The translations under genes were made by a program, and so were the position numbers. Of a DNA stretch of 64,000 nt, positions 28,812-62,810 are shown one piece after another. Origin of the DNA: Bacteroidales bacterium (lineage in GTDB: Bacteria > Bacteroidota > Bacteroidia > Bacteroidales > UBA932); assembly GCA_017429425.1 (NCBI GenBank), contig JAFROY010000002.1, positions 495,317 through 559,316 on the forward strand. The letters are read 5' to 3'. The notes under the pieces were generated by a model. It was not told the DNA's origin and did no database searches. It saw only the letters and a list, made by a program, of their open reading frames with translations. How positions within the stretch are numbered: position 1 is the stretch's first letter; every line of letters starts with the position of its first letter.

Positions 28812-28819
28812 TACTTTTG
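28812..28819 (+). promoter_or_regulatory. -7 box TACTTTTG for the CDP-alcohol-PT operon
   Basis: TAnnTTTG 20 nt upstream of ATG 28840. Confidence 0.5.
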
Positions 28820-28839
28820 TATCATTCAATTAGATAGGG

Positions 28840-29544: not shown

Positions 29545-30005
29545 TGAATAAATCGGCGAAAGCATTGTTGCTCCGATTCCCCAAGTTCGTTGCAGGCAAC
29601 TTGTCGGGGACTCTCGTGGACACACTCGTTCTGTGGGTTTTCTCACACCTCGTGTTTCATTCTTACGTCGGCAAAATGATTGTCTCCCCCGCCATCTCTT
29701 TTGAGTTTGCGGTCTTTACCAACTTTGTCGTTTCCTACAATATGACATGGAGAGACCGTATCTCGCAACGGTCAATCAAATCGTTCTTCAGGCACTACGG
29801 GGCTTACAATATCTCCTGTACGGTGGGATTCCTGATCAAAATGGGTATGCTTCTGTTGATACAGGCGCTGTCGAAATGGGATGTAGTGATATGTAACTTA
29901 TTGGCACTGTGTGTGTCAGGAACCTATAACTTCATGATGAACGAAATGGTTGTTTTCAGAAAAAGAAAGACATGCAATGACGCTGATTACGATGGAAGAT
30001 ATTGA
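29544..30005 (+). CDS. GtrA-family membrane protein
   Basis: 153 aa with four TM segments, starting FPKFVAGNLSGTLVDTLVLWVF, which is typical of GtrA. TAATG overlap with the upstream stop. Confidence 0.75.
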   Translation: MNKSAKALLLRFPKFVAGNLSGTLVDTLVLWVFSHLVFHSYVGKMIVSPAISFEFAVFTNFVVSYNMTWRDRISQRSIKSFFRHYGAYNISCTVGFLIKMGMLLLIQALSKWDVVICNLLALCVSGTYNFMMNEMVVFRKRKTCNDADYDGRY

Positions 30006-31949: not shown

Positions 31950-32896
31950 GGACGGGGTTCGCCGTAGAAGCGCATCCAGACGGCATCCTGAAGCTCCTCC
32001 GGGAGGCCGCGGAGGAAGGAACGGGTCGTATTCTTGGGAAAATCGCTGTAACGCAGGAAAATCAAGCCCGGAAGGGTGTTGTTGAAGTACGGATCCACTT
32101 CGAAACAGACGAGTTTCGCGCCGTTTTCCAGATAGATGCGCACCAGGACCGGCATCCGGTATTTTCCGTCAGAGAGCTTTTTCATCGTGATATCGAGTTC
32201 CCCGATTTCTCCGGGAGGAATCTGCAGATCGTCCGGATTCAAAGAGCCGAAATCCGGCACGAAGGGGTGCTCGGGCGTGGCAATCTGATCGGCATCCGGC
32301 ATCCGGTAATACTTCTGGATATAGTCAGCCATCAGGCTCTTGTAGAGATCAGGAATGTCGTTGCTGATGCTGACTGGCCCCGAAAAGAACTCCATTTCCG
32401 GATATCTCAGCGATGATACGCCGAGTCCGGTCAGCAGCATGCGCAGCGGCTGGATTTCACGCTGGTATTTCTGAACGATAAAGGAACGGCCGAGTTCCAT
32501 GGTTTTGTTAAGCAGCGAAGGGGCCTTCTCCCCATATTTATAGAGCGTAGAGGTATAGAAACCGGATACGCCGCCGTGATCTTTCATGATCTCCGGACCG
32601 AATCCCAGACGGTATGCGCCGACGATTTCCCGCTTCGAAATGTTCCAGAGAATCATCTGCTCATAGTAGGCGTCGAATTCGTCCGTATCCATGGCATGTC
32701 CTGTCCCCTCGCCGACTGCGCGGAAAGTCTTCTCGCGGAGCCGGTACAGCTCACGCATGACAAGCGGAGCTTCCGAAGTCGGAATCAGGTAAGCCCTGTA
32801 GTCTCCAATCTCAAAAAGAATCCGGTGATCCAGTTTGGCCATTTCGGCGCGGATTTCTTTCGCGGGGGTCTTTTTTGCCAGCCGTTCTTTTTTCAT
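31946..32896 (-). CDS. OlsB/GlsB-type N-acyl amino-acid synthase (Acetyltransf_5 GNAT)
   Basis: LYRLREKTFRAVGEGTGHAMDTDEFDAYYEQMILWN...IVGAYRLGFG is the LRxxxF...D.DxFD...vGxYRL pattern of OlsB-like N-acyltransferases. Length is 316 aa. Confidence 0.65.
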   Translation of the reverse strand: MKKERLAKKTPAKEIRAEMAKLDHRILFEIGDYRAYLIPTSEAPLVMRELYRLREKTFRAVGEGTGHAMDTDEFDAYYEQMILWNISKREIVGAYRLGFGPEIMKDHGGVSGFYTSTLYKYGEKAPSLLNKTMELGRSFIVQKYQREIQPLRMLLTGLGVSSLRYPEMEFFSGPVSISNDIPDLYKSLMADYIQKYYRMPDADQIATPEHPFVPDFGSLNPDDLQIPPGEIGELDITMKKLSDGKYRMPVLVRIYLENGAKLVCFEVDPYFNNTLPGLIFLRYSDFPKNTTRSFLRGLPEELQDAVWMRFYGEPRP

Positions 32897-42812: not shown

Positions 42813-43355
42813 CTACTGCTCGCGGATGATGTCCATACCCAGACGGATAGCCTCTTCATTCACCGGAATCAGGTGATGATGGCGCTCCGGAAGGGTTTTG
42901 CGGAGAGCTTTGAGCACGCTTTCGATGGAAACGATGGGGTGAACCTTCAGCAGACCGCCCAGCACGATCATGTTGAAAACCTTGATCATGTTCTTCTCGG
43001 CAGCCGTATCCATCGCGTCGATGCGATAGACGTGAATATCCTTACGAGTCGGCGGGTTGTTGATGCCGTTGCCGTCGTAGATAAGGGTTCCGCCGGGTTT
43101 GACCTTCGGTTCGAACTTATCCAGCGAAGGCTGGTTGAGCACGATAACCGAGTCGTAGGAGCTGAGGATCGGCGAAGAAACCGGTTCGTCGCTGACGATG
43201 ACCGTCACGTTGGCGGTACCGCCGCGCTGTTCCGGACCGTAAGCCGGCATCCAGGTCACTTCCTTGTCTTCCATCAGGCCGGAATAGGCAAGAATCTTGC
43301 CCATCGAGAGGACGCCCTGTCCTCCGAAACCGGAAATAATGATTTCGTGTGTCAT
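42813..43355 (-). CDS. 2-oxoacid:ferredoxin oxidoreductase gamma subunit
   Basis: IIISGFGGQGVLSMGKIL start, 180 aa. It is the last gene of a 4-subunit OFOR set. Confidence 0.85.
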   Translation of the reverse strand: MTHEIIISGFGGQGVLSMGKILAYSGLMEDKEVTWMPAYGPEQRGGTANVTVIVSDEPVSSPILSSYDSVIVLNQPSLDKFEPKVKPGGTLIYDGNGINNPPTRKDIHVYRIDAMDTAAEKNMIKVFNMIVLGGLLKVHPIVSIESVLKALRKTLPERHHHLIPVNEEAIRLGMDIIREQ

Positions 43356-43364
43356 AATTCTTGC

Positions 43365-44135
43365 TTATTGTTGTCCGTTGTCCTTGAGGTCCCCGAGCTG
43401 GTAGTACGGGAACATGTTCTCTTCCATCCACTTGTTGGCCTTTTCAGGGGTCATCTTCCAGTTGGTGTTGCACGTAGAGACGATTTCCACCAGGTTGGAA
43501 CCTTTGCCCTGCATCGAATACTCGAATGCCTTGCGGATGGCCTTTTTAGCCTTGAGGATTGCACCCACGCTCTGTACGCTCTGACGCGTAACGTAGCAGG
43601 TACCTTCGAGCGTTGCGGCGATCTCAGTCATCTTCAAAGGATAACCGTGAAGTTTCGGGTCGCGGCCGTACGGGCACGTGACGGTCTTCATGCCGATCAG
43701 GGTGGTCGGAGCCATCTGACCGCCGGTCATACCGTAAATCGCGTTGTTTACGAAGATGATGGTAATGTTCTCACCGCGGTTGAGTGCGTGGATGGTTTCA
43801 GCGGTACCGATGCAGGCCATATCGCCGTCACCCTGGTAGGTGAAGACGAGACGGTCGGGCCAGAGGCGCTTGATAGCGGTAGCCACAGCCGGAGCACGGC
43901 CGTGAGCAGCTTCTTCCCAGTCGATATCGATATAGTTGTATGCGAAGACGGCGCAACCCACCGGGGAGACGCCTACGGTCTTCTCCTGCATGCCCATCTC
44001 GGCAATCACTTCGGACACCAGTTTGTGGACGACGCCGTGGCTGCAGCCCGGGCAGTAGTGCATCGGGGTGTCGTTCAGAAGTTCCGGTTTTTTGTAAACC
44101 AGGTTTTCGGGCTGTATGATTTGTTCTTTCGTCAT
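43365..44135 (-). CDS. 2-oxoacid:ferredoxin oxidoreductase beta subunit (TPP-binding)
   Basis: CPGCSHG and the TPP motif TYQGDGDMACIG...NNAIYGMTGGQ. Confidence 0.9.
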   Translation of the reverse strand: MTKEQIIQPENLVYKKPELLNDTPMHYCPGCSHGVVHKLVSEVIAEMGMQEKTVGVSPVGCAVFAYNYIDIDWEEAAHGRAPAVATAIKRLWPDRLVFTYQGDGDMACIGTAETIHALNRGENITIIFVNNAIYGMTGGQMAPTTLIGMKTVTCPYGRDPKLHGYPLKMTEIAATLEGTCYVTRQSVQSVGAILKAKKAIRKAFEYSMQGKGSNLVEIVSTCNTNWKMTPEKANKWMEENMFPYYQLGDLKDNGQQ

Positions 44136-44148
44136 AAGGCAATGCAGA

Positions 44149-45231
44149 TTAACGGGTCATTTTCTTGAGTTCTTCTACAACCTCTTCAGGTTCGGGGATG
44201 ATACCGCCCAGACGGCCGTACCACTTGACGGGAACCTTGCATTCGACGGCGAGGCGGATGTCTTCCACCATCTGGCCGGCGTTGATTTCGAGCGAGAGGA
44301 TACCCTTCATCCGGCTGCCCAGTTCAGCGATACGCTTGGTCGGGAACGGCCAGAGGGTGATAGGACGGAGCAGACCGACCTTGATGCCCTGTTCGCGCGC
44401 GATGGCAATCACCTTCTTGGAGATGCGGGCTGCGCTGCCGAAAGCGACAATCAGGTACTCTGCATCTTCGGTCATATACTCTTCGTAACGGACCTCCGTC
44501 TTCTCAATCTCGCGGTACTTCGCCTGGATACGGAGGTTGATGACCTCCATAGCCTCGGAGCGGAGCTCGAGCGAGGTGATGATATTGGGCTTGCGGCCCT
44601 TCTTGCGGCCGTTGGCTGCCCAGGGGCACTGCTTGATGACTTCTTCTTCGGTACGGCGGGGCTTGAACGGAGGAAGGACGACCTTTTCCATCATCTGGCC
44701 GATTGCACCGTCGGAGAGAATCATAGCCGGGTTGCGATACTTGAATGCGAGTTCAAAGGCGAGATCTACGAAATCTGCCATCTCCTGCACGGAAGCCGGA
44801 GCGAGCGTGATGAGACGATAGTCACCGTGACCGCCGCCCTTGACCGTCTGGAAATAGTCGGCCTGGCTCGGCTGGATGGTACCCAGACCGGGGCCGCCGC
44901 GCGACACGTTCACGACGAGGGCCGGAAGCTCGGCACCTGCCAGATAGGAGATACCCTCCTGCATCAGGCTGACGCCCGGGCTGGAGGAGGAGGTCATGAC
45001 GCGCTTGCCGGTAGCGGCACCGCCATAGACCATGTTGATGGAAGAGACTTCGCTCTCTGCCTGGACTACGACCATGCCGGTCGTTTCCCAGGGTTTCTCA
45101 GCTGCGAGGGTTTCGAGGACCTCGGACTGCGGGGTGATAGGATAGCCGAAGTATCCGTCGCAACCGCAACGGATGGCGGCGTGGGCAATGGCCTCATTGC
45201 CTTTCATCAGGGTAATTTCTTTCTCTGCCAT
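44149..45231 (-). CDS. 2-oxoacid:ferredoxin oxidoreductase alpha subunit
   Basis: MKGNEAIAHAAIRCGCDGYFGYPITPQSEV start. Length is 360 aa. Confidence 0.9.
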   Translation of the reverse strand: MAEKEITLMKGNEAIAHAAIRCGCDGYFGYPITPQSEVLETLAAEKPWETTGMVVVQAESEVSSINMVYGGAATGKRVMTSSSSPGVSLMQEGISYLAGAELPALVVNVSRGGPGLGTIQPSQADYFQTVKGGGHGDYRLITLAPASVQEMADFVDLAFELAFKYRNPAMILSDGAIGQMMEKVVLPPFKPRRTEEEVIKQCPWAANGRKKGRKPNIITSLELRSEAMEVINLRIQAKYREIEKTEVRYEEYMTEDAEYLIVAFGSAARISKKVIAIAREQGIKVGLLRPITLWPFPTKRIAELGSRMKGILSLEINAGQMVEDIRLAVECKVPVKWYGRLGGIIPEPEEVVEELKKMTR

Positions 45232-45234
45232 AGA

Positions 45235-45465
45235 TCAGTCCTCCTTTTTGCGGTAAACGGTGATACATCCGTCGGGGCAGACGATGGCGCACGATGCACA
45301 GCCCGTGCAGGTGTCTTCCAGGACGGCTTCAGCGTAGTTGTAGCCCTTCTGGTTCACGCTCTTCTCCGTGAGGTTCAGGACGTGAAGCGGGCAGGCGACC
45401 ACGCAGAGACGGCATCCTTTGCAACGTTCGATGTCAACGACAGTTGCGCCTTTCATTTTAGCCAT
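45235..45465 (-). CDS. 2x[4Fe-4S] ferredoxin (OFOR delta subunit)
   Basis: 76 aa with CKGCRLCVVACP and CTGCASCAIVCP. Confidence 0.85.
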   Translation of the reverse strand: MAKMKGATVVDIERCKGCRLCVVACPLHVLNLTEKSVNQKGYNYAEAVLEDTCTGCASCAIVCPDGCITVYRKKED

Positions 45466-45489
45466 ATCGGTGGTTGTGTTATTAGTTGG

Positions 45490-45759
45490 TTATTGGTTGT
45501 ACATATCCTTGTTGTAGAAAGCCAGGATCTCGTTGGCGATCTCCAGGGCCTGTTTGGCGGGGCTTTCCGGGTTCAGGGCGATGGCCTCAAGGTAATTGTT
45601 GATGGCCATCTGCCACGATCCCTTCTTGCGCCAGGCGTTGCCCTGCAGATAGAAGAGGGTATCGGTCATGACGCCTCCTCCCTGCCGGAACTCCTCCAGA
45701 AGCGCGATGGCTTCGTCGGCCCGGCTCGCATCGAGCAAATCCTTGACTTTCTGTTCCAT
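45490..45759 (-). CDS. Small tetratricopeptide-repeat protein
   Basis: 89 aa. FYLQGNAWRKKGSWQMAINNYLEAIALNP is a TPR unit. It sits between ilvE and the OFOR genes. Confidence 0.6.
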   Translation of the reverse strand: MEQKVKDLLDASRADEAIALLEEFRQGGGVMTDTLFYLQGNAWRKKGSWQMAINNYLEAIALNPESPAKQALEIANEILAFYNKDMYNQ

Positions 45760-45762
45760 CGG

Positions 45763-46809
45763 TTACTTGCGGTCTACGAAGAGGCACCAGTTGTAGGTAT
45801 CTTCTTCCAGGCCCTTCTGGATACCGACGATCCGGTTGTAGAGCTTCTCGCTGTACGGACCGCAGTGGTCGGGAGAACCGATCTTGTAGGTCTTGAGGAC
45901 CTTGTCGCCCTCGAGCGTCTCTTTGTCGTCGATGCTGCAGATCGGGGTGATGACCACAGCCGTACCGCAGGAGTTGACCTCCTCGAAGGTTGCGAGTTCT
46001 TCAACCATGATCTTGCGGCGGACCACCTTCAGTCCGAACTCCTCTGCAACGGTGCGGAGGCTCTTGTTGGTGATGGAGGGCAACACGCTGTCGGAATCCG
46101 GCGTGATGTACATGCCGTCCTTGATGGCGAAGAAGTTGGAGGAACCGAACTCTTCGATGTGCGTATGGGTAGCAGTATCGAGGAAGAGCAGTTCGCGATA
46201 ACCGAGACCGTGAGCCAGATTGTAAGCGTGAAGCGACTGTGCGTAGTTTGCGCCGAGTTTGTAACCGCCGGAGCCGTGGGTGGCTGCGCGGTCATAGTTG
46301 CGCGAGATGACTGCCGTGCCGGGCACGAGGCTCTTGGCGCCGGAGTAGGTACCCACGCCGGAGCACATCACTGCGAAGAGAACATCCTTTGCGGAGTTGA
46401 TACCGAGCTGCGGGTTGATACCGATCAGAATCGGACGCAGGTAGAGCGAGGCACCGCTTGCATAGGGCGGAATGTGCTCCCAGTTCTCCTGGACGCAACG
46501 GATGCAAGCCTCGATGAACATCTCCACGGAGGGAGCTGCCATATCAAGGTATTTTGCGCTGCTGATCATACGCTTTGCATTCTCGTCCGGGCGGAAGAGG
46601 CGGACCTTGCCGTCAGCGCCTTCGTAAGCCTTCAGGCCCTCGAAGCAGGACGGAGCGTAGTGGAAAATACCTGCGAAGCAGTTCAGCTCCAGGTTGAAGT
46701 TGTCCGTAGCGGTAATCGGCGACCATTTACCGTCGATGTACTTGCTGTAAACGATAGCGTTCGTCGGATAGTAAGCGAACTTACGTTTCGAATAATCGAT
46801 TTCTGCCAT
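45763..46809 (-). CDS. ilvE: Branched-chain amino-acid aminotransferase (class IV)
   Basis: CFEGLKAYEGADGKVRLFRPDENAKRM and SGGYKLGANY blocks. Length is 348 aa. Confidence 0.9.
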   Translation of the reverse strand: MAEIDYSKRKFAYYPTNAIVYSKYIDGKWSPITATDNFNLELNCFAGIFHYAPSCFEGLKAYEGADGKVRLFRPDENAKRMISSAKYLDMAAPSVEMFIEACIRCVQENWEHIPPYASGASLYLRPILIGINPQLGINSAKDVLFAVMCSGVGTYSGAKSLVPGTAVISRNYDRAATHGSGGYKLGANYAQSLHAYNLAHGLGYRELLFLDTATHTHIEEFGSSNFFAIKDGMYITPDSDSVLPSITNKSLRTVAEEFGLKVVRRKIMVEELATFEEVNSCGTAVVITPICSIDDKETLEGDKVLKTYKIGSPDHCGPYSEKLYNRIVGIQKGLEEDTYNWCLFVDRK

Positions 46810-46853
46810 GTCTGAAAATGAGTTATTTGATTTAAAAAGTATCTGAAAAAAGA

Positions 46854-48143: not shown

Positions 48144-48977
48144 CTACAGCCGTGCGGAAAGGTCCCTGTAGACGGCACGCGAAACGGGGATCGAAATCCC
48201 GTCCGTGTCCAGCTCCACGGTGATCAGATCCTCCGGATCTTTTCTCAAGGCAACGATATGGGAAAGGTTGACGAACCACGAACGCTGGCAGCGGAAAAGG
48301 TTGTGCGGTTCCACCAGCGGAGCAATGGAATTCATCGTGGCGCGCAGCAGGTAATCCTTAACCTTTCCATTGTCCAGATAGTGGATCTTGACATAGTTGT
48401 CTTCTGCACGGATAAAGAGAATTGACTTGGCAGCCAGGACGATCCGTACCTGATTGTTGGAATCGGTGAAACGGATGTGGTCTTTGGCCACCTCCGCATC
48501 GTCCTCCTGATCCTTGGCGCCGATCAACACGCAGATGACGGTAATGCCGAAATAGGGATAGACGAGAATCAGGAAACTGTATTGGAGGCAGATGGCAACC
48601 TGTTGAAAATAAGGCGTGACACCACCGCCCATCAGGCAGAGGTAGAGCGCCATGAAATAGGTCACCACTGAGATTTCGCCCAAACACCAGAAACTGTAAC
48701 CCAGCCAATTTCTTTGAAGATGGCGGAAGAGCCCCCAGAAAAGCAGCCGGGTCAACAGAAGTGTTACCAGGATGATACACATGAGCATCGTGGTGTTGAA
48801 ATAGAAGAGCCCGCGGCCCATGTCAAGCGCTTCACTCATCTCGAATGGCCGGTAAACAGCCACGACAAAGAAAAAAAAGTAAGCCGACAAGAGAATATAC
48901 CACAACTGCGTACCGAACGACCCGAAGATCGAGGGCAGCGTTTTCAGGTTTGTGGCGGATTGCGTCTTTGCACTCAT
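48144..48977 (-). CDS. Membrane-anchored LytTR-domain DNA-binding protein
   Basis: Four or five TM segments, then IRFTDSNNQVRIVLAAKSILFIRAEDNYVKIHYLD...CQRSWFVNLSHI (LytTR). The track start 49007 is TTG. ATG 48977 lies 27 nt downstream of a minus-strand TATATTTG box, so I prefer it. Confidence 0.8.
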   Translation of the reverse strand: MSAKTQSATNLKTLPSIFGSFGTQLWYILLSAYFFFFVVAVYRPFEMSEALDMGRGLFYFNTTMLMCIILVTLLLTRLLFWGLFRHLQRNWLGYSFWCLGEISVVTYFMALYLCLMGGGVTPYFQQVAICLQYSFLILVYPYFGITVICVLIGAKDQEDDAEVAKDHIRFTDSNNQVRIVLAAKSILFIRAEDNYVKIHYLDNGKVKDYLLRATMNSIAPLVEPHNLFRCQRSWFVNLSHIVALRKDPEDLITVELDTDGISIPVSRAVYRDLSARL

Positions 48978-48981
48978 TTCG

Positions 48982-49051
48982 TCCCAAATTTTAATATTTT
49001 GCCACAAATATACGGTTTTTACGGAATTCTCACCCCAAATATCCCAAATTT
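48982..49051. repeat. Four phased 10-nt direct repeats (two pairs) in the LytTR / C-domain-operon control region
   Basis: R1 is TCCCAAATTT at 48982-48991 and R4 is the identical TCCCAAATTT at 49042-49051. R2 is CCACAAATAT at 49002-49011 and R3 is CCCCAAATAT at 49033-49042. Start-to-start spacings are 20, 31 and 9 nt. Confidence 0.7.
49005..49012 (-). promoter_or_regulatory. -7 box TATATTTG (minus strand) for the LytTR gene
   Basis: TAnnTTTG 27 nt upstream of ATG 48977. It overlaps repeat R2 of the CCCAAAT-type array. Confidence 0.45.
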
Positions 49052-49073
49052 CGCCACCGACCTATTAATAAAA

Positions 49074-49081
49074 TACCTTTG
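49074..49081 (+). promoter_or_regulatory. -7 box TACCTTTG for the helical-repeat / C-domain / ligase / carrier operon
   Basis: TAnnTTTG 19 nt upstream of ATG 49101. Confidence 0.5.
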
Positions 49082-49100
49082 CATCACATTTTTAACAATA

Positions 49101-49952
49101 ATGATAAAATACCTTTTCATCATTCTGGCCATCAATTTCGCCGAACTCGACCGGGCCTTCCAGAAGACCGGTGACATGGCGGCGATCCGCACCCAGTTGG
49201 AGCAGACGCTTCCCGCTGCGGAAAACGATGCCGAGAAGGCGGAAGTCTATTGGCGCATTTCCCGCGCCTGCCTGCTGCAGGGCCAGGAGGCCGCTACGAG
49301 AAAGGAAAAGCGCGAATTCTTTGCGGAAGGGATTCAATATGCAGAAGAGGCCATCAAAGCCGACCCGAACAATCCGCAGGGCTACCTCTGGCGCTGTGCC
49401 AACACCGGACGCGATGCGGAAACCCGCAAACTGATGGAACAGGCTGCGCTTGCTCCAAAGATGAGCGACGACCTGGCAACCGTCCTGGACAAGCTGGGAC
49501 GTACGGACTGCTCCGAAGCCTGGCACACGCTTGCCGAAATCTGGATTCATCACCCGTTCAAGTCGAAAGATGCAGCCATCAATTTCGGCCGGAAGGCAGC
49601 GCTGACGATTCCTGAAAACGATTTGAGGCTCGTCACTCTCTCCTTCCTCGCGCAGAGCCTCTACAAGCGGAACTGGAGCGCAGCGCAACGCCGCAACGCC
49701 GCTGCTACAAACGCCAAGAAGTTCTTGAACGCCAAGAAGAATATTGATAAATTCGCCGCTTTCGACGGGGCGCCACAGGATCTCCTTCGCGCTCCCTGGA
49801 ATGCAGAAGGGCTGGGCGCCCTCTCCGATCGCGAAGAGGCGCTTGCCATCCTAGAGTATGCCATCGGGCGCTACCGCGCCTGCACCAGTCCTACCAAATT
49901 GGATCAGGACGATTATAAACAACTATTAAGTCTCAAAGATCAATGGAAATGA
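49101..49952 (+). CDS. Helical-repeat (TPR-like) protein with hydrophobic N-terminus, unknown function
   Basis: ATG 49101 (MIKYLFIILAINFA) lies 19 nt after a TACCTTTG box. The remainder is alpha-helical repeat-like (AEKAEVYWRISRACLL...NPQGYLWRCANTG). The upstream part of track ORF 48714-49952 runs antisense to the LytTR gene and is rejected. Confidence 0.5.
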   Translation: MIKYLFIILAINFAELDRAFQKTGDMAAIRTQLEQTLPAAENDAEKAEVYWRISRACLLQGQEAATRKEKREFFAEGIQYAEEAIKADPNNPQGYLWRCANTGRDAETRKLMEQAALAPKMSDDLATVLDKLGRTDCSEAWHTLAEIWIHHPFKSKDAAINFGRKAALTIPENDLRLVTLSFLAQSLYKRNWSAAQRRNAAATNAKKFLNAKKNIDKFAAFDGAPQDLLRAPWNAEGLGALSDREEALAILEYAIGRYRACTSPTKLDQDDYKQLLSLKDQWK

Positions 49953-51304
49953 ATTCCAACCCGACGCTCTACCATTTTACCTATTCCCAGGACGTCATTC
50001 GCCTTCAAAGCAAATATGCGCTCTTCAAGCGCGTGCTCAATATCCTGTTTTCCGTAACCTGCGACGAGGGTTTCGATGAAGCGCTCATGGAAAAGGCGCT
50101 CAACCTGCTCTACGAACGCAACGACTGCCTCCGCCTCCGCTTTGTCAAGCAGGGCAAGGAGACCATGCAGTACTTCGAACCCGTTCGCACCGTGGGCCGT
50201 ATCCGCCGTGAAAAGTTCACGACCAGCGCACAGATGCAACGATTCTTCCGCTGCTTCCGCCGCAAACCCACCAACCTGGCCAAGGGCGACGCACTGCGCG
50301 TAGTGTTTGCCGTCAATCCGGAAGGAAAACAGATGATTATCTTCAAGATCAGCCACTATGTAGCAGATACTTACGGAATCGGCATTCTCATTAACGACCT
50401 TTTCGGCATCTACAACGCCCTGCGCGACGGCAAGGAACTTCCGGCCGCTCCCGGCAGTTTTGAGGAGATTGTCCGCAAAGACAACGAGTATCGCAACGAC
50501 GAGGCGGCTACGACACGTGACAAGGAGTTCTTCCTTGACTATTATAAGAACCGCCATGCGCAACACCCCGTCTACTGCGGCCCTCACGGCAACGGCAGCG
50601 ACCGCTGGCTCAAGCTCAAACGCAAGGGCAAGTATTCCCTGCCCTACCTGATGGTCCGCTGTGACACAGAGGGTTACCAGTTTGTTATCCCCAGCGCAAT
50701 CACGGAAAAGGTGGTAAAATGGTGCACGGATCACGGTGTCTCCATGAACGCCTTCTTCTTCTTCAACTTCTCGCTGGCCCTCTCGCTGATCAATGACCGC
50801 GAGACCCGCCTGGCCTCCGTCGAAATCCTTAACTGCCGCGGCACGGTCGCCGACCGCAAGGCTGCCGGCACCAAGGCTCAGGGTGTGTGTGTATGCACGG
50901 AGATCGATTACGCCAAATCCTTTGCTGAAAATGTAGCCATACTCGCACAGGAGCAGAACGAACTCTACCGGCATACCCGCCTGACCTATCTGGAAGGCGA
51001 GGCCTATCAGCACGAGACATGGAAACACTCCATGCTGGGAAGCGTGAACTGCGCCGGTTTCTCCTTCATTCCCTTTATGGCTCCCGAAGGCATCAACCTG
51101 CAGATTCACAGCAACGGAAAGGGCGCGCTGGTTACCTACGTCGCCATGATGCACGACCTTCGCCGGAACGAAACCTTCGTCAACTATGACGTTCAGCGCC
51201 TGATGATCACTCCCTGGCAGCTGATCGACTTCCAGAATGTCTACGTACGCACCATCGAGGCGGTACTCGCAGACTCGGAATCCCCCCTTGAAAGGCTCTT
51301 TTAG
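49943..51304 (+). CDS. Free-standing NRPS-type condensation-domain protein
   Basis: 453 aa. The active-site block IFKISHYVADTYGIG is an HHxxxDG variant (SHxxxDT). Length and layout fit a single C domain. The start overlaps the upstream stop (ATGA at 49949-49952 if the second ATG is used). Confidence 0.7.
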   Translation: MEMNSNPTLYHFTYSQDVIRLQSKYALFKRVLNILFSVTCDEGFDEALMEKALNLLYERNDCLRLRFVKQGKETMQYFEPVRTVGRIRREKFTTSAQMQRFFRCFRRKPTNLAKGDALRVVFAVNPEGKQMIIFKISHYVADTYGIGILINDLFGIYNALRDGKELPAAPGSFEEIVRKDNEYRNDEAATTRDKEFFLDYYKNRHAQHPVYCGPHGNGSDRWLKLKRKGKYSLPYLMVRCDTEGYQFVIPSAITEKVVKWCTDHGVSMNAFFFFNFSLALSLINDRETRLASVEILNCRGTVADRKAAGTKAQGVCVCTEIDYAKSFAENVAILAQEQNELYRHTRLTYLEGEAYQHETWKHSMLGSVNCAGFSFIPFMAPEGINLQIHSNGKGALVTYVAMMHDLRRNETFVNYDVQRLMITPWQLIDFQNVYVRTIEAVLADSESPLERLF

Positions 51305-51316
51305 CAGAAACTTACT

Positions 51317-53056
51317 ATGAATAAATACCGTACAGAACGCGAATATCTCGGTTTGACCCTCCTGAAAGACGGTGACTACGGCAGCATCCGCGAGATGCTG
51401 GAGCGCATCAACCGCCTCATCCCCGGCAATCAGGTGTTGGCAGAACTGGACCAGGAAAAGAAAATCAAATACTATACGGCGCACGACGTTTACGAAGAGG
51501 TGATGTGCCTCGGCGACGGCCTGATTGACGCCGGCCTGAAAGGCGGTCATATCGCCATCATTTCCGAAAACTGCTGCCGTTATGTCCTTGCTGACATTAC
51601 CGTTTCCTGCGGCGTGGGCGTAGTCACCCCGATCGACTGCAACGCTCCGCTCCCGCTGATGAGTACGCTGTTGCAGAAATGTGAGGCGACGGCTGTCTTC
51701 TGCGGCGCAGGCTACCTGGATATCGTCCGCGAGGCGCAGAAGAACTGCCCCCTGATCAAAACCGTCATCACGATGGACCGCAAGACCACCGGCGATCTGC
51801 ACTACGACGACCTCGTGGAACGCGGCCGTGCACTGGCTTCCAAGAGCGTTTACCGTACGATTGACCTGGACCTGGACGCTCCGGCCAAGATTCTCTTTAC
51901 CAGCGGCACGACCGGCGCCAACAAGGGCGTGGTCTTGACCAACCGAAACCTTGCTGCGAATATGGTCAACTGCCTGGATGTCATTCAGGTAGAAGAGAAC
52001 GAAGAGAACACTTCGATGAGTGTGCTCCCCATGCACCATGCCACGGAAATCAATACCCACATCATGGCGCGTATCGGCGCAGGCCGTCTGACCTACATCA
52101 ACGACAACATGCGCAACATGATGGCGAACATCAAGATCTTCCAGCCGACGGTCATCACCGTGGTACCGATGATTGCGAACGCATTCTACAAAAACATCTG
52201 GGCGGCAGCCAAGAAAGCCGGCAAGGACGAAAAGCTTCGCAAAGGCATCAAACTCTGCAACCTGCTGCGCAAATTCGGCGTGGACAAAACGCACGATCTC
52301 TTCAAAGACGTCTATGCTCCTTTCGGCGGCAAGCTAAAGCTGATCGTCTGCGGCGGCTCCATGCTGAACCCCGTCGTTATCAAAGGAATGAATGACCTCG
52401 GTATCCGCATCCACAACGGTTACGGAATCACCGAGTGCGGTCCGCTGATCTCCATGAACGCAGATACGCTGGACGAACACTTGAGCGTCGGCCGCGCCTG
52501 CCCGCAACTGGAAGTCCGTCTCGAAGGCGTGAACGAAGAAGGCGTAGGCGAACTCTGCGTCAAGGGCGCCAGCGTGGCAAAGGGTTACTACAATGACCCG
52601 GAAGCGACCGCAGCCGTATTCGGCGCCGACGGCTTCTTCAACACGGGCGACAGCGCCCGCATCGACGCCAAGGGCCGCATTTTCCTGGTAGGCCGCAAGA
52701 AGAACACCATCGTGCTTCAGAACGGCAAGAACATCTGCCCGGAAGAGGTAGAAAACGTGCTGGAAACCGTGCTGGACTACGCCAAAGACATCGTAGTCTA
52801 CCAGGCTGAACTCCGCACCGGCAATGCCGTCCGCGAGACGCTCTGCGCCGGTATCTTCATTGAAGATGAGGCACAGCGGAAGGACCGTGAAAAGATTGCC
52901 GCCGACATCCGTCGCGCCAACATGCAGTTGCCCGACTACAAACGTATTGAGTACGTCGAGCTCCCTGCTCAGGAATACGAAAAGACATCTACCCGCAAGA
53001 TCCGCCGCACGCAGCTTCCCGCCGCTTGCTCCGGTGAGGGCATTTCACTGATATAA
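51317..53056 (+). CDS. Adenylate-forming enzyme, long-chain fatty-acid ligase type (acyl-AMP/acyl-carrier ligase candidate)
   Basis: LFTSGTTGANKGV, NGYGITECG, GELCVKGASVAKGYYNDPEAT and GDSARIDAKGRIFLVGRKKN. It looks FadD-like rather than like an amino-acid A domain. Confidence 0.85.
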   Translation: MNKYRTEREYLGLTLLKDGDYGSIREMLERINRLIPGNQVLAELDQEKKIKYYTAHDVYEEVMCLGDGLIDAGLKGGHIAIISENCCRYVLADITVSCGVGVVTPIDCNAPLPLMSTLLQKCEATAVFCGAGYLDIVREAQKNCPLIKTVITMDRKTTGDLHYDDLVERGRALASKSVYRTIDLDLDAPAKILFTSGTTGANKGVVLTNRNLAANMVNCLDVIQVEENEENTSMSVLPMHHATEINTHIMARIGAGRLTYINDNMRNMMANIKIFQPTVITVVPMIANAFYKNIWAAAKKAGKDEKLRKGIKLCNLLRKFGVDKTHDLFKDVYAPFGGKLKLIVCGGSMLNPVVIKGMNDLGIRIHNGYGITECGPLISMNADTLDEHLSVGRACPQLEVRLEGVNEEGVGELCVKGASVAKGYYNDPEATAAVFGADGFFNTGDSARIDAKGRIFLVGRKKNTIVLQNGKNICPEEVENVLETVLDYAKDIVVYQAELRTGNAVRETLCAGIFIEDEAQRKDREKIAADIRRANMQLPDYKRIEYVELPAQEYEKTSTRKIRRTQLPAACSGEGISLI

Positions 53057-53068
53057 AACAGATTGACA

Positions 53069-53314
53069 ATGGATATTAAAAAAGAACTGCTGGATATCAT
53101 CCAGGACTACGTAGACTTTCCGGTAGCCGAAATCAACACCGCGGCATCCTTCGCGGAATCTGCCGGACTCGACTCGTTCGTCTTTATTGAAATGGTGAGC
53201 GCGATTGAAGAGCACTTCGGGATTTCCATCCCCAACGGTGATCTGATCGGCTTCCGTTCCATCGACGATATCGTCACCTACCTGAGCGGCCGGCTCTCCC
53301 TCGCGAGCGCATAG
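53069..53314 (+). CDS. Acyl/peptidyl carrier protein
   Basis: 81 aa. AGLDSFVFIEMV carries the phosphopantetheine serine motif. The gap to the ligase is 12 nt. The track start 53063 is TTG. Confidence 0.8.
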   Translation: MDIKKELLDIIQDYVDFPVAEINTAASFAESAGLDSFVFIEMVSAIEEHFGISIPNGDLIGFRSIDDIVTYLSGRLSLASA

Positions 53315-53350
53315 CGGGATAAGCATTTTTTCACTATCTTTGGGGTTCGT

Positions 53351-55624
53351 ATGACGGAAGAACTCCATTTGGTACGTGATCTGGCAATTATCCTGGTTTC
53401 CGCCGGGGTATTCACCATTATCTCGAAGGCGCTCAAGCAGCCCCTGATTCTGGGCTATATAATCGCCGGTTTCCTGATCGGACCGCACGTTACCTTCTTC
53501 CCGGGCATCACCAGCGAAGAGACCGTGCACCAATGGTCGGAAATCGGCATTATCTTTCTGATGTTCGGTCTGGGCCTGGAGTTCAGTTTCAAGAAACTGC
53601 TCAAAGTGGGCAGCAGCGCCCTCCTGGCCGCGGGGACCAAGTTCCTCGGGGTCTTCGTGCTGGGCTATCTCACGGGACAGGCCATGAACTGGAGCGCCAT
53701 GGAGAGTATTTTCCTGGGCGGACTGCTCTCGATGTCCTCCACGATGGTCGTGCTCAAGTCTTACGACGACATGGGCCTCAAAAAGAAGCCCTACGCCGGA
53801 ATGGTATTCGGTACGCTGGTCGTAGAAGACCTGATTGCCATCCTGCTGATGGTGCTGCTCTCCACGATGGCCGTTTCCAACCAGTTCGCCGGCAAGGAGA
53901 TGCTCTTCAACCTGGCCAAGCTGGCCTTTTTCCTGGTTCTGTGGTTCCTGGTGGGCATCTATGTCATCCCTACCCTGCTGAAAAAGGCACGCAAGTATCT
54001 CAACAGCGAAATCCTGCTGATTGTCAGCATCGGGCTCTGTTTCGGGATGGTGGCGCTGGCTGAGACGGTCGGTTTCTCCGCCGCGCTTGGCGCCTTCGTG
54101 ATGGGTTCCATCCTCTCCGAAACCGTCGAGAGCGAACATATCGAACACCTAGTCAGCCCGATCCGCGACCTGTTCGGTGCCATCTTCTTTGTATCCGTCG
54201 GTATGATGGTGGCTCCTTCCGTGATTGCGGAGAATTGGCTCGTTATCCTGATTATCACGCTGATCGTCATGATCAGCCACATCCTGTTCGCCGGAGCGGG
54301 CATCCTGATGGCCGGCAAAGGACTTGAAAATGCCGTCCATACCGGATTCAGCCTGGCTCAGCTCGGCGAATTCGGTTTCATCATTGCAGGCGTGGGCGTG
54401 AGCATGGGCGTCATGCGCGGGTTCATTTACCCGGTCATTATCGCGGTATCGGTCATCACGACCTTCACCACACCCTATATGATCAAGCTGGCCGGTCCGG
54501 CCTACCGCGGACTCGTCCGCATCCTCCCTGCCGGAGCCGTGGCGCGCCTGCAGCCGCAAAGCATCGCCTTCGTATCTGCGGCGGAAGAGAGCGAATGGAA
54601 GAAACTTCTGCGGGCCTACGCGATTCGCATCACCTTGTACGGGGTGGTTCTCGTGGCCATCATGATCGGTTCCAATCTCTACCTTTCACCGCTGGTTCAG
54701 CGGATCTTCCCCGACTGGAGCCCTTTCCTGCACAACCTGATCGATGTGGTCGTGACACTGGCCGCGATGTCGCCTTTCCTGTTCGGACTGGCCGTCAACT
54801 CCGGTTCCATCAAGACCTCCGCCGCCAAACTGCTGAAGACCAAGGGCAGCAACGCCTGGCCGATCGCCGGACTGCTGATTATCCGCTCGTTTATCGCCAT
54901 CTCTTTTGTCATTGGTGTGATTGCCAGCCATTTCCAGCTGGCGGGATGGACCCTGGTCCTGATTGCCGTAGCCGGCTTTGTCCTGATCATTTCCGCACGT
55001 CGTACCGTGCACCGCAACTCCGCACTGGAGGAGCGCTTCCTTTCCAATCTCAACGAGAAGGAAGAGCGGGAACGGCAACGGACGCCGGTTACTTCGTCGG
55101 TGCGGCAGAAAATGGCCAAATACGACGTACACATCGAATCGCTGGAGCTCTCCCCCGACTCCGAGTTCGTGGGCCAGATGCTCAAGGAAGTGCCTATCCG
55201 GGCCGCCTCCGGCGCCAATATCATCAAGGTGCAGCGCGGATCGCACAGCATCACCATTCCTACAGGCAGTTTCCGGCTCTTCCCGAACGACCGGCTGCTC
55301 GCCGTGGGTACGACCCGGCAGCTGGAAAAACTGCGCGAGCTGCTTGCGGATTCGAACCTCCAGCCGATTCCCGAACCCCGGCAGAACTTCGATGTAGTTC
55401 CCGTTACATTAACTACAACCCACTGGCTTACAGGCCGTAAACTTGACGAAACCGCCCTTCGCGAGCGACGCTGCATGATTATCAGCGTGCTTCACGAGGG
55501 AGACTTCATCACCAATCCCGCTCCGGCATACCGGTTTGCCGAGGGGGATGTCGTTTGGATCGCCGGCGAGGAGAAATCCTGCCGCGCGCTGGAAAAACCG
55601 GAAAGCGTCTTCCACAATGCCTGA
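53351..55624 (+). CDS. CPA2-family cation:proton antiporter (Kef-type) with two C-terminal RCK_C/TrkA-C domains
   Basis: LAIILVSAGVFTIISKALKQPLILGYIIAGFLIGPH start, about 12 TM segments, and two C-terminal repeats of about 80 aa (..VHIESLELSPDSEFVGQML.. and ..VPVTLTTTHWLTGRKL..). Confidence 0.85.
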   Translation: MTEELHLVRDLAIILVSAGVFTIISKALKQPLILGYIIAGFLIGPHVTFFPGITSEETVHQWSEIGIIFLMFGLGLEFSFKKLLKVGSSALLAAGTKFLGVFVLGYLTGQAMNWSAMESIFLGGLLSMSSTMVVLKSYDDMGLKKKPYAGMVFGTLVVEDLIAILLMVLLSTMAVSNQFAGKEMLFNLAKLAFFLVLWFLVGIYVIPTLLKKARKYLNSEILLIVSIGLCFGMVALAETVGFSAALGAFVMGSILSETVESEHIEHLVSPIRDLFGAIFFVSVGMMVAPSVIAENWLVILIITLIVMISHILFAGAGILMAGKGLENAVHTGFSLAQLGEFGFIIAGVGVSMGVMRGFIYPVIIAVSVITTFTTPYMIKLAGPAYRGLVRILPAGAVARLQPQSIAFVSAAEESEWKKLLRAYAIRITLYGVVLVAIMIGSNLYLSPLVQRIFPDWSPFLHNLIDVVVTLAAMSPFLFGLAVNSGSIKTSAAKLLKTKGSNAWPIAGLLIIRSFIAISFVIGVIASHFQLAGWTLVLIAVAGFVLIISARRTVHRNSALEERFLSNLNEKEERERQRTPVTSSVRQKMAKYDVHIESLELSPDSEFVGQMLKEVPIRAASGANIIKVQRGSHSITIPTGSFRLFPNDRLLAVGTTRQLEKLRELLADSNLQPIPEPRQNFDVVPVTLTTTHWLTGRKLDETALRERRCMIISVLHEGDFITNPAPAYRFAEGDVVWIAGEEKSCRALEKPESVFHNA

Positions 55625-55653
55625 TTGTCCCGATATTTCAATACGCAACCGAT

Positions 55654-56844
55654 ATGTCGCTTTTTCATAAAACAAACTGGTCCCGTCCGCAGGCCGAATG
55701 GCACAAGGCCGGAGAGATTTTGATGCATACCCCGGGCCTCGAGGCCTTTGATGCCGTCATCCACCCCGCCGCCGGCCTCTACGAAGACTATTTCGACGCC
55801 GACAAGGTATCGGCCGAGCACCGCGAATACATCCGCCGCCTGCGTGCACAGGGCATCACCGTCCACACGGTCAAAGAGATTCTGGACCGCACCGACACCG
55901 AGAGGCTGCGTGCGCTTGCTTCGCGCGTGCTCACGTACGACAGCTCGCACCTTACGGCCGCGAACGGTGCGGACATGGAGGCCTACCGCGAAGAGGTGCT
56001 CTCCAAGATGTCCCGCGCCGACCTGATCCGCTGTATCCTGCTGCGGCCCACCGTCACCCTCTTTGACAGCGACCAGAACACCGGTTACCAGGCCGAGTAC
56101 AGCTACCGCCCGCTGATGAACCTCTACTTCACGCGCGACCAGAGCGTGAATACGCCGCGCGGACTGCTGATCTGCCGCATGAATTCCGACCAGAGGGCGC
56201 CGGAAATCGACATTATTCTGCTCTGCTACGAACAGCTGGGCATCAAACCCATCCTGCAGATTACGGGAGAGGGCCGGCTCGAAGGCGGCGACTACTTCCC
56301 GGCCGGCGAAGTTTCGTTCATCGGCTGCGGCATGCGCACCAACGACGAAGGCATCCGCCAGATCATGGAAGCAGACGCTTTCGGACACGACACGGTAATC
56401 GTGGTCCGCGACCACAAGTTCTGGCAGAAACAGATGCACCTTGACACCTGGTTCAATATCATAGACAAGGATCTCTGCACGATGGTTTCCAGCCGTCTGA
56501 ACGCCCGTCCCGGAGAACCGGAATACGGCACCTGCGACATCTGGCGCCGCGCTTCCGCCGCCGAACCTTACAAGCTGATCGAGAAGGACAAACCTTTCGT
56601 GGACTATCTCCGTGAAGCCGGCTACCAGATCATCCCCATCAACCACGCCGACGAAGAGCACTACGCCAACAACTTCCTGACCGTAGGCCCGCGCCGCATC
56701 ATGGCGGTCGGCGGCCAGTCCGTGGAGCTGCAGAAAGCATTTCGCGAGGCCGGCGTCAAGGTGAACTGGGTTCCCCTGGAAAACAGCATCAAAGGCTACG
56801 GCGCCGCACACTGCATGACCCAGGTGCTCAAGCGCCGGGTCTAA
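55654..56844 (+). CDS. Arginine deiminase-family (amidinotransferase fold) protein
   Basis: 396 aa from ATG 55654. The C-terminal GYGAAHCMTQVL has the catalytic Cys position of the guanidino-modifying fold. MHLDTWFN is a His block. Confidence 0.6.
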   Translation: MSLFHKTNWSRPQAEWHKAGEILMHTPGLEAFDAVIHPAAGLYEDYFDADKVSAEHREYIRRLRAQGITVHTVKEILDRTDTERLRALASRVLTYDSSHLTAANGADMEAYREEVLSKMSRADLIRCILLRPTVTLFDSDQNTGYQAEYSYRPLMNLYFTRDQSVNTPRGLLICRMNSDQRAPEIDIILLCYEQLGIKPILQITGEGRLEGGDYFPAGEVSFIGCGMRTNDEGIRQIMEADAFGHDTVIVVRDHKFWQKQMHLDTWFNIIDKDLCTMVSSRLNARPGEPEYGTCDIWRRASAAEPYKLIEKDKPFVDYLREAGYQIIPINHADEEHYANNFLTVGPRRIMAVGGQSVELQKAFREAGVKVNWVPLENSIKGYGAAHCMTQVLKRRV

Positions 56845-61487: not shown

Positions 61488-61955
61488 TTAGTATATCTTA
61501 TGCTGCATTTTAGCATAATCGTCAAATAGTTCCAGGCAGGCTTCGCGGTCGAGCGGGACCAGGAAGTCGCCCAGTTTGCCGCGGCCCGCGAAGAGTCCGT
61601 CAAACTTGTCGTCGCGGAATCCGATCCGGCCGTTGTCTTCAATCGTGCAGCCGTAATACACCCGGCGGATATGGCCCCAGAGGCAGGCACAGAGGCACAT
61701 CGGGCAGGGCTCGCCGGTGGTATAGAGATCGCAGCCGGAGAGGTTGTAGGTTCCCAGCCGGCGGCCGGCGTCGCGCATCGCGGAGACTTCGCCGTGGCAG
61801 GTGGGATCGTGGTCGACCAGCACGCAGTTGTGTCCGCGGCCAACGACCACGCCGTCTTTGACGATTACCGTACCGAAGGGGCCGCCGTGCTGCTGCGTGA
61901 TGCCCGCGCGCGCCTCTTCGATGGCCATTTGCATATATTTGTTGGTCGCTTTCAT
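61488..61955 (-). CDS. guaD: CDA-fold nucleoside/guanine deaminase (GuaD-like)
   Basis: 155 aa from ATG 61955. GGPFGTVIVKDG, the zinc motif CHGEVSAM (HAE variant) and EPCPMC. It closely resembles my recollection of B. subtilis GuaD. A -7 box lies 17 nt upstream. Confidence 0.75.
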   Translation of the reverse strand: MKATNKYMQMAIEEARAGITQQHGGPFGTVIVKDGVVVGRGHNCVLVDHDPTCHGEVSAMRDAGRRLGTYNLSGCDLYTTGEPCPMCLCACLWGHIRRVYYGCTIEDNGRIGFRDDKFDGLFAGRGKLGDFLVPLDREACLELFDDYAKMQHKIY

Positions 61956-61972
61956 AGCTTTACATTTTCCTA

Positions 61973-61980
61973 CAAAGATA
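61973..61980 (-). promoter_or_regulatory. -7 box TATCTTTG (minus strand) for the guaD-like gene
   Basis: TAnnTTTG 17 nt upstream of ATG 61955. Confidence 0.45.
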
Positions 61981-61995
61981 GGAAAAGTTTTTTCG

Positions 61996-62003
61996 TATTT
62001 TTG
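61996..62003 (+). promoter_or_regulatory. -7 box TATTTTTG for the nitrilase-family / HD / ahcY genes
   Basis: TAnnTTTG 18 nt upstream of ATG 62022. Confidence 0.45.
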
Positions 62004-62021
62004 TATGCTAAAACCGCGAAA

Positions 62022-62810
62022 ATGAAAGTCGTCCTCCTTCAACAAGACATCGTCTGGGCCAATCCCGCCGAGAATCTGAAACTCAATCGGATACGCATGG
62101 AATCGATGCCGGATGCAGACCTCTATCTTCTGCCGGAAATGCTTTCCACGGGCTTCGTAACAAACCCCGTCGGAGTGGCGGAAGAGTTGGTTGAAGGAAC
62201 GTGCGCTTCGCTGGAACTGATGAAGGAGTGGGCCGCCGCCAAAGATGCGGCTGTCTGCGGAAGTATCGCGGTGCACGACGGCGACCTGTATCGCAACCGG
62301 TTCTACTTCGTGAAGCCGGACGGTACTTTTTTCAGTTACGATAAACATCACCTTTTCGCCCCCGGCGGCGAGCCGGCCTTCATTACGCCCGGCAACGAGC
62401 GCGTGGTGGTCGAATGGCGCGGCATCCGCTTCCTGCTGATTGTGTGCTACGACCTGCGTTTTCCCGCATGGTGCCGGAACCGGGGGGACTTCGACGCGAT
62501 TCTCCTGACCGCGAACTGGCCCGGAATCCGCCGCTCGGCATGGGATATCCTCACGCAGGCGCGCGCCGTTGAGAATCAGTGTTATGTCCTGGCCGTCAAT
62601 CGGATCGGCAGCGACCCGAAAGATGGCTACAACGGCGGTACGCGCGCCATCAACCCCTACGGTGAAGTGATGGCGCAGGCAGAAGACAACCGGGAGGCGC
62701 TCGTAGAGGCGAAACTCAATCCTGCATTCGTCCGTCTTTACCTGGAGCGTTTTCCCGTGATCGATAACGCCGACGACACCATTCCCAATTATACGGAGGC
62801 ACGCCGATGA
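62022..62810 (+). CDS. Carbon-nitrogen hydrolase (nitrilase superfamily, omega-amidase YafV-like)
   Basis: MKVVLLQQDIVWANP..., LPEMLSTGF (Glu) and VCYDLRFP (Cys). ATG 62022 lies 18 nt after a TATTTTTG box. Confidence 0.8.
   Translation: MKVVLLQQDIVWANPAENLKLNRIRMESMPDADLYLLPEMLSTGFVTNPVGVAEELVEGTCASLELMKEWAAAKDAAVCGSIAVHDGDLYRNRFYFVKPDGTFFSYDKHHLFAPGGEPAFITPGNERVVVEWRGIRFLLIVCYDLRFPAWCRNRGDFDAILLTANWPGIRRSAWDILTQARAVENQCYVLAVNRIGSDPKDGYNGGTRAINPYGEVMAQAEDNREALVEAKLNPAFVRLYLERFPVIDNADDTIPNYTEARR

Follow-up and report, generated by a model that had tools for sequence, protein, structure and literature searches.

Four tightly packed genes in a genome of a Bacteroidales lineage raise a simple question: what do a condensation enzyme, an adenylating ligase and a small carrier protein make when they are encoded as three separate proteins? 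The genes occupy positions 49101–53314 of a 64,000-nucleotide stretch (contig JAFROY010000002.1, positions 495,317–559,316, assembly GCA_017429425.1), which is referred to here as the window. A sequence-only reading of this DNA had proposed a minimal acyl-transfer pathway that it did not recognise as a characterised one of Bacteroidota. Based on profile searches, predicted structures and comparison of gene order, we consider the cassette to be probably a Bacteroidales branch of the discrete fatty acid amide (FAA) pathway, which resembles non-ribosomal peptide synthetases (NRPS) and yields an N-acyl amine. FAA pathways of this kind are known from gut Clostridia (Chang et al. 2021, as cited in PMC13310621 and PMC10871352). 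In one of them, the oleoyl-aminovalerate pathway of Coprococcus eutactus, OaaA activates fatty acids and the free-standing condensation enzyme OaaC (12KH) joins fatty acids bound to an acyl carrier protein (ACP) to free amines such as 5-aminovalerate (PMC13310621).

All four plus-strand open reading frames (ORFs) were found where the sequence-only reading had placed them, with the same overlap, 12-nt gaps and -7 box. The first gene (49101–49952) encodes a 283-aa all-helical protein resembling tetratricopeptide repeat (TPR) proteins, and its start is an internal ATG within a longer TTG-started ORF. It is overlapped by 10 nt by the gene of a 453-aa free-standing condensation (C) enzyme, probably of FAA type (49943–51304). 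After a gap of 12 nt follows the gene of a 579-aa adenylating ligase (A) of the ANL superfamily (51317–53056) and, after a further 12 nt, that of an acyl carrier protein (T; 53069–53314), which measures 81 aa from its ATG and 83 aa from an alternative TTG at 53063. The -7 box TACCTTTG is located at 49074–49081 (+), 20 nt ahead of the ATG of the TPR gene, and a TAnnTTTG box was present about 20 nt 5' of the first operon gene in 7/7 loci inspected. The spacings of -10, +12 and +12 nt, together with this conserved box, point to a single operon. A terminator scan revealed no convincing candidate 3' of the carrier gene, and a sigma-70 scan was uninformative for Bacteroidota promoters. Two long antisense ORFs that overlap real genes, at 49940–52294 (-; 784 aa) and 44116–46815 (+; 899 aa), were rejected as artefacts of high GC content and stop-poor antisense frames.

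In order to place the C enzyme, we compared it with domain models, solved structures and its own family. It matches the Pfam Condensation model with an E-value of 2.3e-24 (86 bits against a cut-off of 30.6 bits), and the ligase (AMP-binding, 7.2e-55) and the carrier (PP-binding, 5.8e-14) likewise lie far above the curated cut-offs, in line with the domain types named by the sequence-only reading. Its top match in the PDB is OaaC, both with the single sequence (E 1.1e-18, 70 bits against 46 for the next entry) and with a family profile built from 32 sequences (E 3.4e-31, 111 against 67 bits). In the latter search, residues 25–448 align end to end with residues 27–461 of OaaC, whereas the next matches (the first C domain of PvdL and the C domains of ObiF1, tyrocidine and surfactin synthetases) cover the N-lobe only. 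The predicted structure (pLDDT 90) shows a complete two-lobed C fold, with TM-scores of 0.76–0.80 to C domains in a comparison set that excluded 12KH and hence OaaC itself. Here, the best superpositions were obtained with the starter C domains CDA-C1 (TM 0.80) and RzmA (TM 0.79, root mean square deviation 3.2 Å). This preference for lipo-initiation domains agrees with the report that FAA C domains are neighbours of starter C domains and carry a non-canonical (D/H)HxxxD(S/A/G) motif (PMC13310621).

The catalytic block SHYVADT comprises residues 137–143, and the catalytic His138, on which the earlier assignment depended, is invariant in 119/119 aligned clade members, as is Asp142. The clade consensus is S-H-[YFM]-[VA]-A-D-T, with Ser at position 1 in 116 and Thr at position 7 in 110 of the 119 sequences; the corresponding block reads DHRLxDS in the Oaa-like clade and CHLxxD(I/T) in an intermediate clade. 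As both catalytic residues are invariant, the C enzyme is very probably active, and on sequence grounds SHxxxDT would be a new variant of an already non-canonical FAA motif.

HMMER searches recovered a continuum of stand-alone C proteins of 445–475 aa, all aligning over their full length with OaaC, which extends from the Bacteroidales clade via Firmicutes-like C-A-T trios (L009, L010, L016) to Clostridial C proteins. In a bootstrapped neighbour-joining tree (gamma-Poisson distances), whose deep nodes are poorly supported and from which only the two following clades are used, the Bacteroidales C sequences formed a clade with 100% bootstrap support. This clade is enclosed, at 94%, in one that also includes the C proteins of the low-GC Firmicutes-like trios. 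None of the stand-alone C proteins grouped with the canonical NRPS C domains.

The ligase and the carrier lead to the same pathway. The ligase motifs TSGTTGANKG, GYGITECG and GELCVKGASVAKGYYNDPEAT are present in the translation, as are SHYVADT in the C protein and GLDSF in the carrier, all as first read. For comparison, OaaA and OaaACP were taken from the natural oaa locus L011, which was recovered with an OaaC fragment rebuilt from a printed alignment and whose C protein matches the 12KH fragment at 98% identity. Compared with OaaA, the window ligase shows 33% identity along almost its entire length (E 1.5e-78, 248 bits), while the best solved ANL structure reached only 107 bits. The core motifs of both enzymes align, and the window ligase is 60 aa longer and contains a 27-aa insertion that is also present in the ligases of the Firmicutes C-A-T trios. 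The carrier shares 27% identity with OaaACP (E 3e-9), the phosphopantetheine-attachment Ser in GLDSF aligns with the Ser of OaaACP, and among NCBIfam models it is nearest to generic ACPs. The ligase is expected to load its acyl group on the adjacent carrier. The three proteins are thus homologous as a set to Clostridial FAA pathway proteins, with OaaC as the best match of solved structure, and the view that the trio lacks a known relative had to be given up. At 25–33% identity these homologues are distant, so that close orthology to a characterised system is approached and not reached.

A stand-alone ligase beside a small stand-alone carrier is also the arrangement of a Dlt-like system, in which the pair would D-alanylate or aminoacylate a cell-envelope polymer, and the carrier does show weak matches to DltC models. 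Their scores of 24.5 and 16.1 bits stay far short of the cut-offs (68 and 52, respectively), the 25 best matches of the ligase include no DltA model, and the model for amino-acid adenylation domains scores far under its cut-off. Furthermore, DltB and DltD genes are missing and a C enzyme is present instead. Orthology to DltA/DltC, which the sequence-only reading had considered as a competing outcome, was accordingly not found; we regard a Dlt-like role as effectively refuted and give it next to no chance.

The nature of the activated acid deserves closer consideration. The best NCBIfam models for the ligase are long-chain fatty-acid--CoA ligase subfamilies, all of them below the equivalog cut-offs, and the protein also matches o-succinylbenzoate, malonyl, oxalate and 4-coumarate ligases as well as luciferases. 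It could be argued that the substrate is a different acid (aromatic, short-chain or otherwise derived from diet or host) and that the product is not an FAA. We consider this decidedly unlikely: long-chain fatty-acid ligases score best, the closest characterised relative OaaA activates fatty acids (PMC13310621), the long insertion is common to the ligases of the Firmicutes C-A-T trios, the C fold is nearest to lipo-initiation starter domains, and the TPR partner resembles lipid binders.

For the FAA pathway that we favour, we infer a fatty-acid donor, an amine acceptor, an N-acyl amine product and roles for the TPR-like and LytTR proteins as follows. The ligase would adenylate a free fatty acid, probably long-chain and possibly exogenous, and hand over the activated acyl moiety to its dedicated carrier (81 aa) by way of the phosphopantetheine arm. 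At the C enzyme, a freely diffusing small-molecule amine would then attack the acyl thioester by means of His138, and the N-acyl amine would be released without a thioesterase. Neither a thioesterase nor further NRPS modules were found beside the C, A and T genes, the neighbouring ORFs belonging to unrelated Pfam families. The TPR-like protein may bind a hydrophobic ligand in the periplasm, either capturing the fatty acid or chaperoning the lipid product outward, and would thereby parallel, in role and not in fold, the SCP2-like lipid-transport protein of some Clostridial clusters. A four-helix membrane protein with a LytTR domain, encoded divergently, may control operon expression by responding to a cue from the membrane or from lipids. 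The core of this scheme, in which an acid is adenylated, loaded on its carrier and transferred by the C enzyme to a soluble nucleophile to give an N-acyl amine, had been suggested from the sequence and is now backed by homology to a biochemically reconstituted system.

Next, we investigated how widely the arrangement is conserved. The order LytTR (-), TPR, C, A and T recurred in 11 fetched loci with at least eight flanking contexts (L001–L008, L014, L015), thereby bearing out the expectation of synteny, and the GC content of the cassette loci ranged from 38% to 62%. As the flanking genes differ between the loci carrying it, the repeated order is not due to chance, and the cassette is a self-contained five-gene unit. 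Identity across loci was highest for the ligase (68–78%), followed by 49–80% for the carrier, 54–67% for the C protein and 40–58% for the TPR protein; the faster evolution of the C protein would fit a role in acceptor specificity. Two loci, L004 (5769–9350) and L005 (1948–5529), encode a second C paralogue 5' of the TPR gene, so that this gene is flanked by two C genes. The two paralogues share 67% and 59% identity with the C protein of the window, and they suggest that a single ligase and a single carrier serve two acceptor specificities.

Relatives of the C protein fall into 227 protein clusters at E ≤ 1e-5 in a collection of 5.8 billion sequences, and these clusters stem mostly from metagenome assemblies. 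Those with a name are annotated as "hypothetical protein"; taxon labels are rare and give "Bacteroidales bacterium". The small number of clusters and their mostly metagenomic origin point to an accessory rather than a core trait. A scan of a genome collection with a single sequence as query returned three close loci, all from rumen metagenome-assembled genomes; the wider taxonomy derives from metagenome contigs, and the Bacteroidales C clade as a whole has rumen and gut metagenome sources.

These findings bear on a further explanation, in which the cassette would provide the missing N-acylation step of membrane amino-lipids or sulfonolipids, as the sequence-only reading had speculated. Bacteroidota make N-acyl amino-lipids and sulfonolipids, and a lipid-gene cluster with aminolipid-type genes is present in the window at 28840–32896, 17 kb from the cassette. 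It consists of a CDP-alcohol phosphatidyltransferase (28840–29544), a PlsC-like acyltransferase (29950–30810), a 380-aa protein without a Pfam match (30807–31949) and, on the strand opposite to the rest, a GNAT (31946–32896) of PF13444, a family to which N-acyl amino acid and glycine-lipid synthases belong. Lipids of this type are made by a GNAT (PF13444) with PlsC-type or by Spt-type enzymes, with acyl groups from the housekeeping ACP. The presence of a separate N-acyltransferase and a PlsC-like acyltransferase (29950–32896) speaks against a place for the cassette in core lipid synthesis. Moreover, the cassette never adjoins lipid-biosynthesis genes, its flanks vary from locus to locus, and its distribution is that of an accessory trait. 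We therefore reject this role as very improbable; the genome probably carries both routes to N-acyl amides.

The 283-aa protein was described at the outset as a helical-repeat protein with a hydrophobic N-terminus. The helical repeats were confirmed; the description fell short in that the protein resembles the exported lipid binders BstC and PTPIP51. Its AlphaFold model (pLDDT 92) is all-helical with 14 helices, and the best natural fold matches, both with E-values of about 6e-4, are BstC (7t1s, TM 0.53/0.63) and the TPR domain of PTPIP51 (7cc7, TM 0.45/0.55). The same two entries are the best natural matches in a sequence-profile search (7cc7, E 5.2e-6; 7t1s, E 3.6e-4); designed consensus-TPR matches were disregarded as they comprise single repeats. 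Direct Pfam and NCBIfam scans of the protein gave nothing significant. BstC, a T-component protein of bacteria, binds sterols and has hydrophobic cavities (PMC10942540), and the TPR domain of PTPIP51 is treated as a lipid-transfer domain in PMC10243591. Among 65 detectable homologues, the N-terminus was hydrophobic in all 35 that were aligned, and several have a canonical signal peptide or a Cys that could belong to a lipobox, indicating that the protein is probably exported. We propose that it may bind or carry a hydrophobic ligand, and see here the weakest link of the argument.

The regulator gene (48144–48977, -; about 277 aa) is divergent from the operon. Its ORF formally reaches a TTG at 49007; we take the ATG at 48977 as the likely start because the TTG falls inside a putative -7 box of the gene, TATATTTG, at 49005–49012 (-). 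The frame 48144–49007 matches Pfam LytTR at 3.4e-16, again far above the curated cut-off, corresponding to a C-terminal DNA-binding domain, and a hydropathy scan predicted four transmembrane segments at residues ~21–145 ahead of this domain, so that the divergent membrane-anchored LytTR regulator stands as first described. A receiver domain, the classical partner of LytTR, is absent and replaced by the four predicted helices; by its predicted architecture, the protein is a one-component membrane variant of LytTR regulators. Orthologues (46–83% identical) were placed equally in every Bacteroidales locus fetched.

The divergent promoter and operator region (48978–49100), as judged by inspection of the sequence, contains both -7 boxes and a set of YCMCAAATWT repeats. 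Four of these repeats, at 48982, 49002, 49033 and 49042, lie within 70 bp, and the whole window contains eight matches against 1.13 expected, which makes them candidate LytTR operators. A 13-mer, CGYCACAAATATA, was found exactly once per locus in L001–L008, always intergenic between regulator and operon. It was set aside as an operator, as its reverse complement is the TAnnTTTG -7 box of the LytTR gene, which is the simpler reading.

Several findings weigh against assigning the cassette to the FAA pathway. Identity to the characterised proteins is low (25% for the C protein, 33% for the ligase and 27% for the carrier), and at positions 1 and 7 SHxxxDT departs from the published (D/H)HxxxD(S/A/G). 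The C proteins of the Bacteroidales form a clade of their own, distinct from the Oaa-like one, in a tree whose outgroup consists of six canonical C domains and which includes no curated starter, VibH or PapA5 sequences and none of the 127 published FAA sequences. In view of the separate clade and the low identity, the substrate classes could differ from those of Oaa. No phosphopantetheinyl transferase (PPTase) was detected among window ORFs of at least 200 aa, smaller ORFs not having been scanned, and no amine-supplying gene is conserved beside the cassette, leaving the acceptor unconstrained. As for the TPR-like protein, folds of this type cross-match promiscuously. Precomputed PF21033 (RMD1-3) matches exist on nearly all of its homologues, whereas the window protein itself has none at E ≤ 0.01 and the L007 orthologue scores 23.3 bits, below the cut-off of 26.7. 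Finally, L013 (4043–8324) encodes LytTR, C, A and T without a TPR-like gene, and the TPR protein is consequently frequent, not essential to the chemistry.

With the acceptor thus unconstrained, the same machinery might instead act like PapA5 or SgcC5 and form an ester, or use an acceptor that is macromolecular or not an amine; examples would be hydroxy acids, sugars, membrane lipids or components of the cell envelope. The periplasm-facing TPR protein would then handle a lipid intermediate. The distance of the C clade from OaaC and its unique motif are compatible with this, the ester-forming SgcC5 is among the good fold matches, and the export of a putative lipid-binding partner hints that the product could be associated with the envelope. 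On the other hand, the closest characterised relative forms amides and acts on free amines (PMC13310621). PapA5 and VibH are both absent among the PDB profile matches at E ≤ 1e-5 and the top 50 fold matches, and the conserved genes of the cassette include none for glycosyl or lipid modification. We consider such an acceptor unlikely. This explanation overlaps with that of a non-fatty donor discussed above.

The surroundings of the cassette differ between loci. In the window, a CPA2/TrkA_C antiporter gene (53351–55624) follows the carrier gene after 36 nt. Its own TAnnTTTG box, TATCTTTG (53335–53342), lies 9 nt ahead of its ATG and suggests a separate promoter; because of this box and its absence from other loci, we did not include the antiporter in the cassette. 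Further downstream are an ADI/amidinotransferase-family gene (55555–56844) and a carbon-nitrogen hydrolase gene (61671–62810). These families belong to arginine, agmatine and polyamine metabolism and could supply an amine. An ADI/amidinotransferase-family gene adjoins the cassette in L006 also; in the other loci, neither gene is conserved. L006 shares the upstream synteny of the window (aminotransferase and butyrate/acetate-kinase-like genes) and has a phospholipase A1 gene (PF02253; 11470–12375) directly 3' of the carrier gene. This neighbour was seen once; a fatty-acid-releasing enzyme beside a fatty-acid ligase is suggestive. Elsewhere in the window, positions 20001–32000 have a GC content of 47–50% compared to 55–60% in the remainder, with a Fic/DOC-HTH gene (20416–21444) at the edge, and this region may have been horizontally acquired. 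ORFs of 213–431 aa without a Pfam family were observed at 5927–7216, 18806–19903 and 23765–24406 (E ≤ 1e-5) and at 42873–44168 (E ≤ 1e-4).

Both the chemistry and the three-protein logic of the cassette are probably those already known from the Clostridial FAA pathway. As far as the literature shows, its occurrence in Bacteroidales is new, and so are the variant of the motif, the order of the genes, the TPR partner and the membrane LytTR regulator. Descriptions and surveys of the NRPS-like FAA route have so far been confined to Clostridia: PMC10871352 surveyed Clostridia genomes only, the string "Bacteroid" is absent from the text of PMC13310621, and our literature search found no link of this route to Bacteroidales. 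Microbial N-acyl amines are a very active topic, as Clostridial FAA products act on human G-protein-coupled receptors and are linked to inflammatory bowel disease. If the cassette is active, a second major phylum of gut and rumen would possess the same chemistry, the divergent C clade could be used to study acceptor specificity, and the TPR partner and membrane LytTR protein would be candidate solutions for handling hydrophobic substrates in a two-membrane cell. Going further, rumen and gut Bacteroidales might join an amine that is abundant in the gut to fatty acids from host, diet or microbes and so make a new family of N-acyl amines. These would be handed across the periplasm by the TPR protein and released, for example, on outer-membrane vesicles, and the membrane-embedded LytTR protein would complete a lipid-signalling circuit by sensing the lipid substrate or product. 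We offer this extended scenario tentatively, as conceivable though on balance doubtful; if true, it would represent an FAA pathway adapted to diderm cells, with its own export and sensing logic, and a possible new source of host-active lipids.

Comparing the cassette to known systems, we found the greatest similarity to Oaa. In both, a C enzyme, an ANL ligase and a small carrier are encoded side by side, each by a gene of its own, and a thioesterase is lacking; both keep the catalytic His and Asp and have lost the first His of the motif, and both occur in gut anaerobes. They differ in host (diderm Bacteroidales versus Lachnospiraceae), in gene order (C-A-T versus C-T-A), in the motif (SHxxxDT versus DHRLxDS) and in the additional conserved gene for an exported TPR-like protein. 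The oaa locus L011 also encodes a LytTR protein, in the order LytTR (148 aa, -, 38–484), C, T, A and a TetR-like gene. This protein is soluble, whereas that of the window is fused to four transmembrane helices, and BLASTP detected no similarity between the two at E ≤ 1. The related locus L012 has a MarR gene and no LytTR gene. Shared ancestry of the two regulators was considered and set aside; their presence at both loci may be coincidence or convergence.

The ebf and ecf FAA clusters of Enterocloster bolteae and E. clostridioformis (PMC10871352) likewise combine stand-alone C, T and A genes with an accessory protein predicted to bind or transport lipid. They add a PPTase, a hydrolase and an SCP2-like lipid-transport protein, whereas the window cassette includes neither PPTase nor hydrolase, and its putative lipid-binding partner is exported and of the unrelated TPR fold. 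The Firmicutes-like trios (L009, L010, L016) share the C-A-T order and the long ligase type (51–57% identical), and their C proteins (26–39% identical) occupy well-supported neighbouring branches. In contrast to the cassette, they have a divergent HTH_3 (XRE-type) regulator, no TPR gene and the motif CHLxxD(I/T).

For the TPR-like protein, BstC/TatT and PTPIP51 (RMDN3) share the all-helical TPR-like fold and rank first among natural proteins in fold and profile comparisons alike; BstC, moreover, is an exported bacterial protein binding a hydrophobic ligand, as predicted here for the 283-aa protein. However, identity is only 13–16%, with TM-scores of 0.45–0.63, the protein is under the Pfam cut-off, and, in contrast to BstC/TatT, no TRAP or RND transporter genes adjoin its gene. 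Among modular synthetases, the starter C domains of RzmA (RzmA-Cs), CDA (CDA-C1) and PvdL are most similar to the C enzyme: the first two give the best superpositions, the first C domain of PvdL is the best sequence match after OaaC, and all use fatty-acyl donors. They are, however, embedded in multimodular synthetases, receive their acyl group from acyl-CoA or in-cis acyl carriers and transfer it to a carrier-bound amino acid, whereas the C enzyme of the Bacteroidales cassette would take it from a dedicated free-standing carrier and pass it to a freely diffusing amine.

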